Shown here: positions 13,140 to 21,756 of the stretch, piece after piece | Position numbering within the stretch: the first letter of the stretch is position 1 | How the letters are laid out: every line of letters begins with the position of its first letter | From: an uncultured Verrucomicrobiota bacterium | GTDB taxonomy: Bacteria; Verrucomicrobiota; Verrucomicrobiia; Palsa-1439 | Reading direction: 5' to 3' | Length of the DNA: 59,424 nucleotides | NCBI GenBank assembly: GCA_964574605.1 | Contig: CAZNOK010000002.1 | Location: 1 to 59,424, forward strand | Translations under genes and position numbers: made by a program | Notes under the pieces: model-generated | Databases searched by the model: none | The model's input: the letters and a program-made list of their open reading frames with translations, nothing else | Told to the model about the DNA's origin: nothing

Positions 13140-14354
13140 CTACGCAGACCGCATGCGGATGAACCACGTGACATCTTCGTCAAGCTCATAGGGGCGGTTA
13201 AGCTCGGCGGAAATTTCATCCACTGCACGCTTCACGCCCCACTTTGGGTTCTCGCCTAGCTCGATGTCGTGGCCGCAAAGCAGACCGCCATGTTTAACTT
13301 TTGGCAGCCAAGCACGGATATCCTCGATGCAGCCCTCATAGGTATGATCGCCATCGACGAATGCGAAGTCGAGAGACCGGTCGGGAACCTGAGCCGCGGC
13401 TTCGAGGGAAGGCGCGCGCATAATGGTGCGCCTTCCAGCGGCAAAGTCGGTGCGGCGGAAGGCATCCGCGTGCCAGCGGTCCCATGTGGCTTGTGAGGTA
13501 TGGGCGTAAGCGGCCGGGCTTTGTTCATAGCGTGAGTTCTTGGGCCATTGCAGCCAAGGGTCCACCATGCGAAGTCGTAGGTCGGGCCGGGCGGCTAATA
13601 AGTAGGCGGAGAGTTTGCCGCGGAGCACGCCGATCTCGGCACCAGATGGGTTGGTGACACCTCGGAGGTGTTTGAGGATGGCATCGCCGCGTCCGATGCG
13701 GGGCCGGAAATCCTCGACGGGGCAGGACCAGAATGCATAGAACCAGCGAAGCTGTTCGACAGGACGGCCGGCAATTCCGTGCATATGGCCAACGACGATG
13801 TTGTTGGCATCGGCTGGCTTCATGAGATGCTGAAAATCCAGCCAGTTGAACTCTTTTTGCAGCCAGCGTGCCGCGATGCCGAGTTGGACCCGCGCCGCAT
13901 TGAGTTGGGTTTGATCCTTGAATGGCGACTTAAGCGTTTTCAACAGGGCCTCTGCTCGCTCCAACAGTTTCCGGTGGTGTGTCCGGTTAAGGATGAAGAA
14001 GCCGCTGTTGAAGTACTCCTTCGGCGGAATCCCGACCCGCCGAGCATCCTGTATGACCCAACCGCGGTCCCAGAGATCGCCGACACAAACCAGTTCCGGC
14101 AGATTCGCGTATGCGCGGGGATCGAACTGCTTCAAGAAAATCGTGTCGGCATCGAAGTAGAGAATGTTTTCCACTTCGGGAAACTCCTCGAACATCCGGA
14201 ATTTCAGGTGGTGCGGGTGTTGGACGCCATGCCGCAGCGCCGCCTCGGGGCCGAGAATGTGAACCTCCAGCCCAGTGCGCTGCCGGCAGGAGTCGGCGGC
14301 GAGTGTCGCCAGTAGTTCATACTTTTCGCCAACGCCGATGGTTACCGCGATCAT
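13140..14354 (-). CDS. GT8-like glycosyltransferase fused to class I SAM-dependent methyltransferase (Methyltransf_24-like)
   Basis: ATG 14354 overlaps the GT9 stop (ATGA); an alternative ATG lies at 14366. N-terminal half has DxD-type ILYFDADTIF and NSGFFILN. C-terminal half has LDFAFVDGDHTYEGCIEDIRAWLPKVKHGGLLCGHD. Confidence 0.65.
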   Translation of the reverse strand: MIAVTIGVGEKYELLATLAADSCRQRTGLEVHILGPEAALRHGVQHPHHLKFRMFEEFPEVENILYFDADTIFLKQFDPRAYANLPELVCVGDLWDRGWVIQDARRVGIPPKEYFNSGFFILNRTHHRKLLERAEALLKTLKSPFKDQTQLNAARVQLGIAARWLQKEFNWLDFQHLMKPADANNIVVGHMHGIAGRPVEQLRWFYAFWSCPVEDFRPRIGRGDAILKHLRGVTNPSGAEIGVLRGKLSAYLLAARPDLRLRMVDPWLQWPKNSRYEQSPAAYAHTSQATWDRWHADAFRRTDFAAGRRTIMRAPSLEAAAQVPDRSLDFAFVDGDHTYEGCIEDIRAWLPKVKHGGLLCGHDIELGENPKWGVKRAVDEISAELNRPYELDEDVTWFIRMRSA

Positions 14355-15478
14355 GAGCTTGTCCATATCGCCTGACAGAATTCCCTTTCTTTTGAACTCA
14401 GATACTTGACCGCGCCGCCGGCGAAGTAGCACTCGATGCGGCGGATGACTTCCTCCGCACTAATCATATCCATGCAACGCGGCAATAGGCGCGGCCATTG
14501 CTCGCGCGGATAGGCCAGCGCGTTTTTCGGTGGCGCGCTGCTCCCGTTGCCGGGCAGCACGACATCCACGCATATCTTGTCCGGCTTGTCTTTCTCGTCG
14601 CCATCGCCCAGCGGCACGGCCCGCGACTTCCAACAACCGCCGTTATCGCAGCAGAACAGCGCGCCGTTGGTGTGGATGTATTGATGATGCGGATACGCTT
14701 CCCACTGCGCCGGTTCGCGTCCGCCGGCCACCACCACGCACGGGCGGTTCTTTGGCATCCCCGTCTTGGTCTCGACCGCCGCCGCAAGATGCATCATCAG
14801 CGTCACCGGGCAGAGCACGCCTTGGGCGTGATAGACCAGCCGCACCAGTTGCCGCAGATCGGTCTTGCCGCGAAAGTCGAGTGCGCCTTTCAGTGCTGGA
14901 TGCTCGTGGCCTTTCTCGCCGACTTGCACGAACAGAATCTTGCCCCGGAAATAGTCCACCACTTTCTGGAACCGCTCGTGCGACCACCATTTGATGGTGA
15001 AGTCCTTCTTGCCGCCGGCCACGACGATCCAGAATGGCACCGGCTCCTTGGTGATCTCCTGCACTTGCGACATCCATTGCTTTTCCGGCGGCGCAAGATG
15101 AATGTCGCCCTTGAACGGGCCGGGACGGATCGCGACGCTGAGTTTCGCGCTGAGGAACTGCGTGAACCCGTGGATGAAATGCCACGGCTCGGTGTTGCTG
15201 TGGTGAATCAACGGATACTCGCACTGGATGACCTCGTCCGCGATCTGTAGCCGCGAGGCGTCCTCGCGGCCCGGTTTAGCCCCGCCGCGAACAGGGTTCG
15301 CGGCTACAGGCTCAGCCAATGGTGTGATATACGGATTGTTCTCCCAGAGTTGCGGGCAGGGTGTGCGCACATCCGTGAGAAACTGTTTTGGGTGCGACAG
15401 GTGCAAGTCGCGCACCGCTGCCGTCAACATCACGATGTCGCCGGGCGACAGGAAATTTTTCAGGATGATTTTCCTCAT
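14351..15478 (-). CDS. Glycosyltransferase family 9 (heptosyltransferase-fold) protein
   Basis: N-terminus KIILKNFLSPGDIVMLTAAVRDLH. C-terminal GT9-type Cys/CM..I....V signature (FCCDNGGCW...CMDMISAEEVIRRI). Its ATG overlaps the stop of the upstream poly-Ser ORF (ATGA at 15475-15478). Confidence 0.75.
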   Translation of the reverse strand: MRKIILKNFLSPGDIVMLTAAVRDLHLSHPKQFLTDVRTPCPQLWENNPYITPLAEPVAANPVRGGAKPGREDASRLQIADEVIQCEYPLIHHSNTEPWHFIHGFTQFLSAKLSVAIRPGPFKGDIHLAPPEKQWMSQVQEITKEPVPFWIVVAGGKKDFTIKWWSHERFQKVVDYFRGKILFVQVGEKGHEHPALKGALDFRGKTDLRQLVRLVYHAQGVLCPVTLMMHLAAAVETKTGMPKNRPCVVVAGGREPAQWEAYPHHQYIHTNGALFCCDNGGCWKSRAVPLGDGDEKDKPDKICVDVVLPGNGSSAPPKNALAYPREQWPRLLPRCMDMISAEEVIRRIECYFAGGAVKYLSSKEREFCQAIWTSS

Positions 15479-21400: not shown

Positions 21401-21756
21401 TAGGAAACTGCGATATGGTGCCACCCTACGCCGGAGCCGATGCGGTCACTGTTCGCATAGATGCCGATCCAGTCGCTCTGGACCATGAAGTCGCCGTTTT
21501 CGTCCACATTGACGAGCAACCCGACGCATTCAGGTGCCGTCTTGCCGTTCGGGCTGGTGAGGTTAAGCACGTTCTTCGACTCGTCAGTCCAATCGAGGTA
21601 GAACCAACCCTCCAGCGTGTAGGGCACATCGCCGCTTTCGAGGCCAGCGATAAACTCACCGGCAGCCGACGCGTTGTAGGTGAACCCAAGGCTGCCGGGC
21701 GTGCCGGAACCGCTGCTGGACGATGACGCCGATGAACTGGAGGAGGAAGAAGACAT
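18424..21756 (-). CDS. Mosaic 1110-aa protein: poly-Ser N-terminus, LamG, poly-Ser, Cys-rich module, poly-Ser, LamG-like jelly roll, poly-Ser/Thr, toxin-like C-terminal domain
   Basis: A single open frame links recognisable globular blocks. LamG 1 spans about 21043-21700. An 8-Cys module spans 20482-20884. LamG 2 spans 19549-20253 and ends ...QRQGVEVYLAVKWF. The C-terminal domain (18424-19235) contains HRWDLKVP and WDVPGNIYFGLVGRMAGFGKWYLHFGAGVAQ. There is no N-terminal signal peptide (MSSSSSSSSASSSSSGSGTPG). Confidence 0.8.
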   Translation of the reverse strand: MSSSSSSSSASSSSSGSGTPGSLGFTYNASAAGEFIAGLESGDVPYTLEGWFYLDWTDESKNVLNLTSPNGKTAPECVGLLVNVDENGDFMVQSDWIGIYANSDRIGSGVGWHHIAVSYDPEASVVYVAVDGRVKAVNMQDDLDLELGDIGINGWVGSNTEHGNIRIGPCRISDIARYTENFTPPGTLPADEYTVAAYDMHEGSGTTVHDLSENGNDLTITDLSGSHSWLSFTPQYWPSSSSSGSSSSSSNTSSSSTTSSSSSIPPSSSSSAPPSSSSSGPPPSSSSSASSGVPDECPENLSGYWRIAGYYDGLLERCEDCDTGVVDETPWNGTINQPQQSPECSWGYSNTGLYINGALFGHCEVGLDISNGRWWLLVSCKTPQQNASTIWLGYKHTGATPVGTYTRADGCAESPETLELEEDPGSSSSSSSSSSSSSSQSSSSSSEPPSSSSFFISSSSSSASSGSQSSSSSSSSNSSSSGSSSSSSSQSSSSSSSSSSSWTGPELKLWFDAADADTLFQDADMTEPVTADEDPVWAWKDKSGGDHHIIASDEDAAPMYKIAIQNGLPVVRFDGEENLLTGAVSGLGGNSSKTLFLVVRVSDEDQTAFHLGDKTDLDGFGFRRNASGYAEGFQDSSGNGCVDDDEMTADMAVVTLVKDGNHLSLYLDGDLVAEADLPEDANIENDTFGLGALNDGSASFLNGDICELACFDAALDNSQRQGVEVYLAVKWFMEIPSSSSSSSSSSSSSSSSSSSSSASSSSSSSGSSVSNSSASESSTSESSTSESSTSTSSTSTSSTSTSSTSESSTSTSSTSTSSGSSSGSSSSASSSSSSSSSSSSPHLCGPEVTDWLVERMNLDAASPEMVLMRFLNRYYGKTGFAIASSIFAWRVYPGHRWDLKVPIQGGPSGTGPTKGNCPTADCKHLLNPNTQEPDTDSWTVTLCDECHRWDVPGNIYFGLVGRMAGFGKWYLHFGAGVAQHLNEFPWNLWKNLWANQDDPPDQVAIDVGFAVYQTLQDKWLLWDLILQAAGLGLLELFPVLLWTTMTPEQMTTRINQKLQQLGITLPPLDVTVSDVSSCIGSLSSSQTAVLKTYVPSSCSACCQESWSPSP
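19236..19548 (-). repeat. Coding low-complexity Ser/Thr/Glu tract (linker 3), internally repetitive (SESSTSESSTS...STSTSSTSTSS)
   Basis: About 104 codons, almost all Ser with periodic T/E. Short tandem units are visible in the DNA (gaactcgtcgaagtcgagga...). Confidence 0.85.
20254..20481 (-). repeat. Coding poly-Ser tract (linker 2)
   Basis: About 76 codons, dominated by Ser, between EEDPG and WTGPELKLWF. Confidence 0.85.
20885..21042 (-). repeat. Coding poly-Ser/Pro tract (linker 1)
   Basis: SSSSSGSSSSSSNTSSSSTTSSSSSIPPSSSSSAPPSSSSSGPPPSSSSSASS, between ...TPQYWP and GVPDECPE. Confidence 0.85.

Follow-up and report, generated by a model that had tools for sequence, protein, structure and literature searches.

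Polymorphic toxin systems such as Rhs, CDI/CdiA and MafB combine a conserved N-terminal body with a recombining C-terminal toxin domain and have their immunity genes alongside (PMC3482391), while the autotransporters TibA and AIDA-I are hyper-glycosylated on serines, in the cytoplasm, by heptosyltransferases of the BAHT family such as TibC and AAH (PMC4358343). Here, we describe a locus that recalls both: a block of seven genes in a stretch of 59,424 nucleotides (nt) from an uncultured Verrucomicrobiota bacterium (contig CAZNOK010000002.1 of assembly GCA_964574605.1; this whole stretch is called the window below). Numbered from left to right, the genes are called P1 to P7 (Table 1). We propose that they form a composite, clade-conserved locus that brings together a toxin-immunity pair, a machinery for the cytoplasmic O-glycosylation of polyserine and a separate unit built around P4, a proposal that, taken as a whole, we see as evenly poised between right and wrong.

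As in the polymorphic toxin systems, a conserved body in P7 precedes a C-terminal toxin domain that appears to recombine, a variable small gene lies directly downstream, the tip and the putative immunity gene are of atypical composition, and tandem pairs are found in one relative. Unlike those systems, P7 presents no RHS, filamentous-haemagglutinin, PAAR, LXG or MafB-N domain and no signal peptide, having LamG domains on polyserine instead, and this locus is linked to cytoplasmic glycosyltransferases and to a protein with an FN3 domain.

Like the BAHT enzymes, P2 is a GT9-type GT-B protein with no membrane anchor and is encoded beside a serine-bearing candidate substrate. It also has an insertion in its C-lobe with invariant cysteines (C276, C277, C282, C303 and C335, in a region that is partly of low predicted local distance difference test score, pLDDT), as does TibC in its iron finger (C339, C342, C358 and C370, also in the C-lobe; PMC4358343), although the spacing differs. 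Unlike TibC, whose N-terminal domain, at residues 1-97, is a beta-barrel (PMC4358343), the P2 model begins with a beta-alpha-beta lobe of the Rossmann type (E2-7, H12-28, E33-38). Furthermore, P2 has no detectable sequence similarity to TibC or AAH, the block encodes no autotransporter, and the proposed substrate is disordered polyserine and not a beta-helix. Judging from the sequence and the predicted structure, we consider that P2 is not a member of the BAHT family.

Another likeness is to the serine-rich repeat proteins (SRRPs) of Gram-positive bacteria, such as GspB, Fap1 and SraP, in that very serine-rich proteins are encoded beside cytoplasmic glycosyltransferases, including GT8 enzymes, and glycosylation is proposed to precede export. 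Unlike in the SRRP systems, neither GtfA/GtfB nor SecA2/SecY2/Asp is encoded in the block or the window, GT8 being all that is shared, and the polyserine proteins, which belong to a Gram-negative-type Verrucomicrobium, have no long signal peptide and no LPXTG motif and consist of near-pure serine as opposed to SASX-type repeats. Polyserine linkers join modules in secreted carbohydrate-active enzymes of marine polysaccharide degraders such as Saccharophagus and Cellvibrio. There as here, serine runs join folded modules, including lectin-like or carbohydrate-binding-module-like ones, in a glycan-degrading host; unlike those enzymes, which have Sec signals and no dedicated transferases, the polyserine of this locus is confined to the block and absent from the window's secreted glycan enzymes. 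An earlier note on this DNA knew of no described system with this gene set, and we likewise found no account of it, nor any paper that connects polyserine proteins with GT9-like enzymes and with LamG toxins, in the searchable literature, whose incomplete coverage makes this weak evidence of novelty.

Gene Order and Modularity

Seven co-directional genes by themselves could be due to chance, but their recurring order in other genomes is not. Relatives of the locus were reached through P4 homologues in contigs and genomes and through P2 homologues in metagenomes. Related Verrucomicrobia have the order of the block at seven further loci or more (L003/L042, L043, L044, L047 in part, L048 and L016, as well as L046, which is without P4 and P3). 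In this common order, a LamG/polyserine protein with a variable C-terminus is followed by one or two open reading frames (ORFs) with a signal peptide or membrane segment, and these by an ORF over a 21-nt array, P4, a basic-headed polyserine protein and a GT9-like gene, which is sometimes fused to, or located upstream of, a pyruvyl transferase, GT1 or GT8-methyltransferase gene. The neighbourhoods of these loci differ, for instance rplM-rpsI-argCJB at L003 and pckA at L016, and the order is still kept in L016, where P4 identity is down to 49%. In L046, only an N-terminal remnant of P4 is found (2861-3420), P3 is lost, and the LamG toxin and immunity-like genes abut the GT9-like gene. Three other samples, which represent the window's own species, share an identical left junction between the block and the FAD_oxidored gene. 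Given that the same order is found in different genomic contexts, it constitutes a conserved unit within this Verrucomicrobia clade, and we regard the synteny, on the comparison of sequences, as established there.

This agrees only in part with the earlier view of the block as one functional unit: the order is conserved in the clade, but the unit is not indivisible, as three modules occur separately elsewhere. P4 and the array are found without the remaining block genes in Methylomonas, Methylobacter, Bryobacterales (Acidobacteria) and Bacteroidetes; the GT9-like gene, often with a polyserine ORF, is found in around 70 fetched loci without P4 or the LamG protein; and the toxin tip and the putative immunity gene are exchanged independently. 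The block is therefore a composite locus of three modules, namely A (P7 and P6), B (P5, the array, P4 and the hairpin after it) and C (P3, P2 and P1).

The present analysis builds on the ORF listing with translations and on profile searches of the block proteins against Pfam, NCBIfam and PHROGs, and most of the initial description stands. All seven ORFs between 13140 and 21756 are on the minus strand; 3 nt separate the end of the plus-strand FAD_oxidored gene (13136) from the P1 stop codon (13140-13142) at the left edge, and 344 nt separate the P7 start (21756) from the next plus-strand ORF (22101) at the right edge. Plus-strand catabolic genes flank the block on both sides, including the FAD_oxidored gene, whose product has a Tat-like N-terminus. 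Low complexity is likewise found in three proteins (polyserine in P3 and P7, G-x-S-G-Q heptads in P5), and the toxin-like C-terminal domain beside glycosyltransferases is recovered by Pfam as Ntox44 in P7, GT8 and Methyltransf_24 in P1 and GT9 in P2; P3, P4, P5 and P6 have no Pfam matches. The reported absence of Sec and Tat signals is approximately right, with the reservation that P6 has a hydrophobic, signal-anchor-like segment at its N-terminus and P7 has one hydrophobic segment near residue 1023.

The genes are closely spaced, with 16 nt between P7 and P6, 7 nt between P6 and P5 (if P5 starts at ATG 17482), 26 nt between P5 and P4, in which a GGAG-type ribosome-binding site is found, and 83 nt between P4 and P3, while the P3/P2 and P2/P1 junctions are ATGA overlaps. 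The overlaps and the gaps of 7 to 26 nt fit co-transcription. Scans for promoter and terminator consensus sequences gave no signal exceeding that of shuffled sequences.

Table 1. Positions of the block features within the window (aa, amino acids; AF2, AlphaFold 2; MFE, minimum free energy; GC3, GC content at third codon positions; TRF, Tandem Repeats Finder)
Feature	Position (nt)	Strand	Details
P1 ORF as listed	13140-14432	minus	Likely true start ATG 14354 or 14366
P1 from likely start	13140-14354	minus	GT8 domain (N-terminal) fused to Methyltransf_24 S-adenosylmethionine methyltransferase (C-terminal), Pfam
P2	14351-15478	minus	375 aa; GT9-like GT-B glycosyltransferase; Pfam GT9, 25 bits; no membrane segment, no signal peptide
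P3	15475-16101	minus	208 aa; strongly basic 45-aa head (RKERKPERRRTLRRHPRKKRKP) and about 160 aa of polyserine; proposed glycosylation substrate
Double hairpin between P4 stop and P3 start	16104-16176	minus	MFE -58.7 kcal/mol over 96 nt; sequence unique in window
P4	16185-16805	minus	206 aa; N-terminal helical hairpin and C-terminal FN3 sandwich; AF2 pLDDT 87
P5 ORF as listed	16832-17497	minus	Likely true start ATG 17482
P5 tail over the array	16832-17122	minus	GxSGQ heptads in frame; stop at 16832
21-nt tandem array	16850-17099	minus	About 12 units; TRF period 21/42
P5 Zn-ribbon domain	17123-17482	minus	CxxC...CxxCGC...NLAAYEENLPKWGCKHP (CxxC...CxxCxC...GCKH); also delimited as 17123-17455
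P6	17490-18407	minus	305 aa; N-terminal membrane anchor (hydrophobic from about residue 25); putative cognate immunity protein
P7	18424-21756	minus	1110 aa; predicted polymorphic toxin; Pfam Laminin_G_3 (two) and Ntox44
P7 C-terminal toxin region	18424-19206	minus	aa 851-1110; low-GC tip, GC 0.49, GC3 0.48
Ntox44 match	18718-18921	minus	P7 aa 946-1013; E 6e-7; 30.2 bits against Pfam cutoff of 24
P7 polyserine linkers	about 19207-19548, 20257-20460, 20857-21048	minus	
P7 LamG-2	about 19552-20250	minus	about aa 503-735
P7 Cys-containing middle domain	20461-20856	minus	
P7 LamG-1	21052-21699	minus	about aa 20-235; P7 also has an N-terminal polyserine run

Polyserine Proteins and GT9-like Glycosyltransferases

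Over 22 codons, the head of P3 differs between the window and L003 by 9 synonymous and 0 nonsynonymous changes and is under purifying selection; homologues with the same head are found at L003, L016, L043, L044, L047 and L048, and the orthologues of L016, L047 and L048 have an extra globular domain in frame. Its serines are encoded by all six codons, with AGY and TCN mixed. The conserved head, the mixed serine codons, the in-frame globular additions and the ATGA overlap with P2 support P3 as a real gene, and P3, P2 and P1 are translationally coupled. Automatic gene callers omit P3 and other polyserine genes and report, in their place, short ORFs on the antisense strand with many Glu, Leu and Asp residues ("ELLELDE"), for instance at L001 (236-1990), L003 (5051-6886 and 10972-11229) and L040 (5080-5787). 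Polyserine proteins are thus systematically absent from annotations.

P2 belongs to a family of more than 4800 homologues, of 56 to 83% identity, in Verrucomicrobia, Polynucleobacter and others. Its AF2 model (pLDDT 81; predicted template-modelling score, pTM, 0.83) matches only GT9 structures in Foldseek, with TibC giving the highest TM-scores (0.51-0.54 vs. 0.43-0.46). P1 has an orthologue in L016 that is 66% identical and starts at MIAV, and neither P1 nor P2 has a membrane segment.

Evidence connecting polyserine with these enzymes comes from a survey of the 80 closest metagenomic loci with P2 relatives (L042-L121), of which 47 have at least 1.5 kb of upstream sequence. Upstream polyserine ORFs are encoded on the same strand in 24 of these 47 loci and on the opposite strand in 1, and many of the same-strand ones end 0 to 150 nt before the GT9-like start. 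Downstream of the P2 relative, by comparison, polyserine ORFs are found in 2 of 55 loci on the same strand and in 5 of 55 on the opposite strand, and control loci chosen without regard to P2, 494 kb in all, contained no polyserine ORF. Within the window, the only polyserine ORFs are P3 and P7. Elsewhere, the partner genes of the GT9-like enzyme include PS_pyruv_trans, GT1/GT4, Methyltransf_21/24 and a GT41-like protein, and toxin-like or large polyserine proteins are encoded upstream of it in unrelated loci (L040, L041, L066, L074 and L114).

The polyserine proteins themselves are varied. The small ones among loci L042-L121, which come from many metagenomic lineages, have short, diverse heads (lysine-rich, of RKERKPERRR type or amphipathic) and a long polyserine tail, and are encoded directly upstream of the GT9-like gene. 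Larger ones with variable C-termini are found at L040/L049, L066 (three in tandem), L074 and L114. At two GT9 loci, L076 and L095, polyserine-containing proteins encoded at about -7300 and about -7600, respectively, relative to the GT9 gene have N-termini of the form ..LLPATVR.RD...LFIQTCAPWAIPYIG.. that may resemble baseplate proteins of contractile, phage-tail-like injection systems.

The LamG Toxin and Its Putative Immunity Protein

By its domain content and its variation among relatives, P7 appears to be a polymorphic toxin with a swappable C-terminal tip. The motifs of the Ntox44 family, DxK, GNxxxG and DxxxD (PMC3482391), are all readable in its translation, as WDLK, GNIYFG and DDPPD. 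In the P7 homologues of L003, L016 and L043-L048, LamG-2 is 58 to 63% identical and the C-termini are unrelated; the ORFs downstream of these homologues are unrelated as well and have a signal peptide or a membrane segment, and at L042 two toxin/immunity-like pairs are found in tandem. As in P3, all six serine codons are used in P7.

We infer that P6, which starts 16 nt past the P7 stop codon, is the immunity protein for the P7 tip. GC3 is low in both, at 0.48 in the tip and 0.55 in P6, against 0.66 to 0.83 in the local surroundings, and the strongest tetranucleotide anomaly of the window (z = 4.3) falls in this region, although polyserine adds to that value. Furthermore, a contig from another metagenome (L001) matches the window almost without difference between 17300 and 14118, diverges from it between 17300 and 17417 and is unrelated to it upstream of 17417. 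The comparison of its positions 1-391 with window positions 17300-17690 places the breakpoint inside the first 50 or so codons of P5, and the end of another protein replaces P6, a pattern that reads as the signature of cassette exchange. P6 homologues, which are few, were observed at L125 (3833-4978) and L127 (1889-3025); they have 378 to 381 aa owing to an internal duplication of the central region and stand alone among unrelated neighbours, in the manner of orphan immunity genes.

The 21-nt Array, P4 and the Downstream Hairpin

The Zn-ribbon domain of P5 belongs to an unnamed family with 243 representative homologues (P0241-P0390 among them), most of which stop right after the domain. Elsewhere, it is fused to GT29, GT25 and Gly_transf_sug (DXD) domains, and there are weaker matches, below the cut-off, to PS_pyruv_trans and sulfotransferase. 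Because of these transferase fusions, we place it with the glycan-modifying machinery, apparently as an accessory domain of the enzymes. P5 also gave a weak match to phrog_13558.

In P5, the Zn-ribbon runs into the 21-nt array. In four phyla (Verrucomicrobia, Gammaproteobacteria, Acidobacteria and Bacteroidetes), most loci have an array with a 21-nt period (2 to 12 units, often with super-periods of 42, 63 or 84 nt) ahead of the P4 homologue, with unit sequences that are unrelated between loci and often palindromic. Apart from the window, such arrays were found at L003, L008, L009, L011-L020, L026, L029-L033 and L037, at around -300 to -75 nt from the P4 homologue or, in Methylomonas, at -550 to -350.

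The array could act as a peptide or as nucleic acid. A peptide is favoured by the ORF that spans it in most loci, often with a start codon in ATGA overlap with the preceding gene, and by heptads of FVG[AT] type that, although the DNA differs, are shared by Methylomonas and two Verrucomicrobia loci. Against a conserved peptide, homologous repeats are read in different frames among close relatives (the window and P0242 vs. L003 and P0243), most Zn-ribbon homologues have no tail, and an ATG or the array itself is missing from some loci. An RNA structure is favoured by the palindromic form of many units and by the folding of several arrays, which is far stronger than that of shuffled sequences (z down to -9.9). 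Against it, other arrays score around 0 relative to shuffles, the difference in energy between sense and antisense strands is mixed, and a G-U asymmetry in favour of the sense strand is limited to some loci. In the window, the hairpin belongs to the consensus unit of the array and is 77% paired, with covariation that does not exceed that of shuffles. Given the mixed folding, the inconsistent strand asymmetry and the lack of covariation above shuffles, an array of RNA hairpins is not established. No variation in array copy number between samples was seen in the few comparable contigs.

P4 itself has more than 200 homologues, nearly all of 206 aa and aligned without gaps, in Verrucomicrobia, Methylomonas/Methylobacter, Bryobacterales and Bacteroidetes. 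A Foldseek search with its model gave generic FN3 matches only, and its neighbours across phyla share nothing consistent, comprising histidine kinases, FG-GAP/T9SS proteins, RHS proteins, Wza-like proteins, cyclophilin and WecG.

The double hairpin downstream of P4 in the window is probably an attenuator, a terminator or a stabiliser of the mRNA 3′ end. An Rfam cmscan of 13000-22200 at E<=1 gave a single match, a chance miRNA-like one on this palindrome. In most loci, equally stable hairpins of unrelated sequence are found within 150 nt after the P4 stop codon, in some cases with a T-run (L003, L011, L016-L018, L020, L021, L024, L030-L032, L034 and L035). The position of the hairpin is thus kept while its sequence is not, which suggests that a transcription unit stops after P4 or that the 3′ end there is protected, and the array, P4 and the hairpin look like a self-contained expression unit.

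Proposed Mechanism and Alternative Explanations

In the mechanism that we propose, P7 would carry lectin-like LamG domains on long polyserine spacers and an exchangeable C-terminal tip, here Ntox44, while P6, presumed to be a membrane-anchored immunity protein, would be swapped jointly with the tip by recombination. P2 would place the first sugar onto the serine hydroxyls of polyserine tracts in the cytoplasm; the GT8 domain of P1 would then extend the glycan, which its methyltransferase domain would cap or modify, and the Zn-ribbon domain of P5 would be a probable helper of module C. The substrates would be P3 and, presumably, the polyserine spacers of P7, and the product would be stiff, protease-resistant, mucin-like stalks. 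Module B would make the FN3 protein P4, for which a role as an abundant structural or adaptor protein is one possibility. That polyserine accepts the sugar, that P6 confers immunity and that the LamG domains bind target glycans are steps that we infer.

For P3, and by extension for the P7 spacers, cytoplasmic O-glycosylation of polyserine has the best support of the mechanisms considered. We favour it because of the association between polyserine ORFs and GT9-like genes, the ATGA coupling, the selection on the P3 head, the GT9 fold of P2 with its best TM-score to the serine-glycosylating TibC, the lack of membrane segments in P2 and P1 and the fusions of the Zn-ribbon to transferases.

Several observations weigh against the proposed scheme. 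Regarding the enzyme, the Foldseek ranking by E-value places the lipopolysaccharide (LPS) enzyme WaaF and a Veillonella GT9 protein above TibC, and a phmmer search of P2 against all PDB sequences found nothing, TibC and every other solved structure included. Regarding its substrate, around half of those P2-family loci whose upstream sequence is long enough have no polyserine ORF. As for the toxin, the tips of other P7 homologues have no Pfam matches, so that only the window's tip fits a known toxin family, and P7 has neither an N-terminal hydrophobic signal nor, by Pfam, NCBIfam and PHROGs, a trafficking domain for a known secretion route; no known secretion domain that could export the block's products was found, and profile searches detected no secretion-system genes in the window. 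P6 has no Pfam or PADLOC match and falls into no recognised immunity family, and its five homologues are all orphans with no Ntox44 near them. Finally, P4 and the array are found in other phyla in the absence of modules A and C, and the scheme does not account for their role here.

The main rival to polyserine glycosylation, which we nevertheless rate as rather unlikely, is that P2, P1 and the P5 domain modify an envelope glycan such as the LPS core, capsule or another surface polysaccharide. The producer would thereby be shielded from its own LamG toxin or would discriminate kin, much as in prophage seroconversion, and the polyserine tracts would be spacers or passengers. P2 is, in fact, annotated as an LPS heptosyltransferase and folds like one, with WaaF giving the best Foldseek E-value; the partner genes found elsewhere are typical polysaccharide-modifying enzymes; the LamG domains are lectin-like; and P4 homologues are found in polysaccharide loci of Methylomonas and Methylobacter (with GT4, WecG and Wza-like genes). 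L041, where the GT9-like enzyme is paired with RHS-type toxins and there is no polyserine ORF, speaks for envelope modification and against polyserine as the substrate. On the other hand, envelope modification leaves unexplained the directional and often coupled association of polyserine with GT9-like genes (24/47 vs. 0 in controls), the transferases have no membrane segment, and the block contains no flippase, polymerase or lipid-carrier gene.

An improbable explanation, in our view, is that the modules are three functionally unrelated small operons, co-linear only through shared ancestry in one lineage. Every module is found alone in other lineages, a strong hairpin separates P4 from P3, and L046 keeps the remainder of the block without these two genes, all of which speak for independent operons. 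Nevertheless, the order is held at 49% P4 identity and with wholly changed flanks, and polyserine, otherwise absent from the window and the controls, is present in both P7 (module A) and P3 (module C). Moreover, toxin-like or large polyserine proteins recur upstream of the GT9-like gene (L040, L041, L066, L074 and L114).

It is also improbable that the block derives from a phage or a phage-tail-like particle, as its remnant or its cargo, with P7 as a tail-fibre or receptor-binding protein with LamG domains and an exchangeable tip, P4 as an FN3 decoration or fibre protein and the transferases as seroconversion genes: although the FN3 half of P4 matches phage FN3, minor-tail and fibre proteins in BFVD, P5, P7 and the P1 methyltransferase domain have weak PHROG matches, and the polyserine-containing proteins of L076 and L095 may have baseplate-like N-termini, no capsid, portal, terminase, sheath, tube or integrase gene is found in the window or the eight syntenic loci, the FN3 matches are generic (eukaryotic FN3 domains in the PDB score equally), most of the block is of native composition, and Ntox44 is a domain of a polymorphic-toxin family and not a fibre tip.

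Returning to polyserine glycosylation, we tentatively put forward a broader version, which is possible rather than probable: an undescribed mucin-like glycoprotein system might combine a widespread GT9-like family with exchangeable partner transferases and a Zn-ribbon accessory, acting on near-pure serine tracts in small basic-headed polyserine proteins and in the stalks of a new class of polymorphic toxins led by LamG domains, alongside a cross-phylum module of array, P4 and hairpin in which the array would act as a heptad peptide or a structured leader. If this is true, several thousand GT9-like proteins that are now annotated as LPS heptosyltransferases would be tied to polyserine proteins and to a bacterial mucin-type glycosylation, an association that missed polyserine genes have hidden in existing annotations. 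Likewise, a polymorphic toxin that is made of LamG domains on polyserine spacers and lacks any known handle for secretion would imply an unrecognised delivery route in Verrucomicrobia. The module of array and P4, found in at least four phyla, and the association of polyserine with GT9-like genes are the parts most worth attention.

Composition and Neighbouring Genes

The composition scan did not mark the whole 8.6-kb block as foreign, the deviant parts being the toxin tip and P6 only, and we therefore reject the idea that the entire block is a horizontally acquired island. An anti-phage defence system was also considered and rejected, as a PADLOC search gave no match.

The flanks and the rest of the window are devoted to glycan catabolism, with genes for sulfatase, beta-helix, DUF4838, FAD_oxidored, GH109, GH28/BNR and 3-keto-disaccharide hydrolase proteins. 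The plus-strand array to the right of the block opens with an MTTB-family (trimethylamine methyltransferase-like) gene (22101-23585), unexpected in a glycan-catabolism cluster; for the right junction in other samples, the exact MTTB-like protein is not on record elsewhere. Further along (47429-49638), an HNH_2 endonuclease gene (minus strand, 47429-48370) adjoins a DDE_3/HTH_32 transposase gene (48649-49638), and this pair points to an insertion sequence inside the glycan-catabolism region. Left of the block, a single ORF (3549-5525) encodes an unusual fusion in which multihaem cytochrome c motifs are joined with a LamG domain and with a TIM barrel of the xylose-isomerase-like kind.

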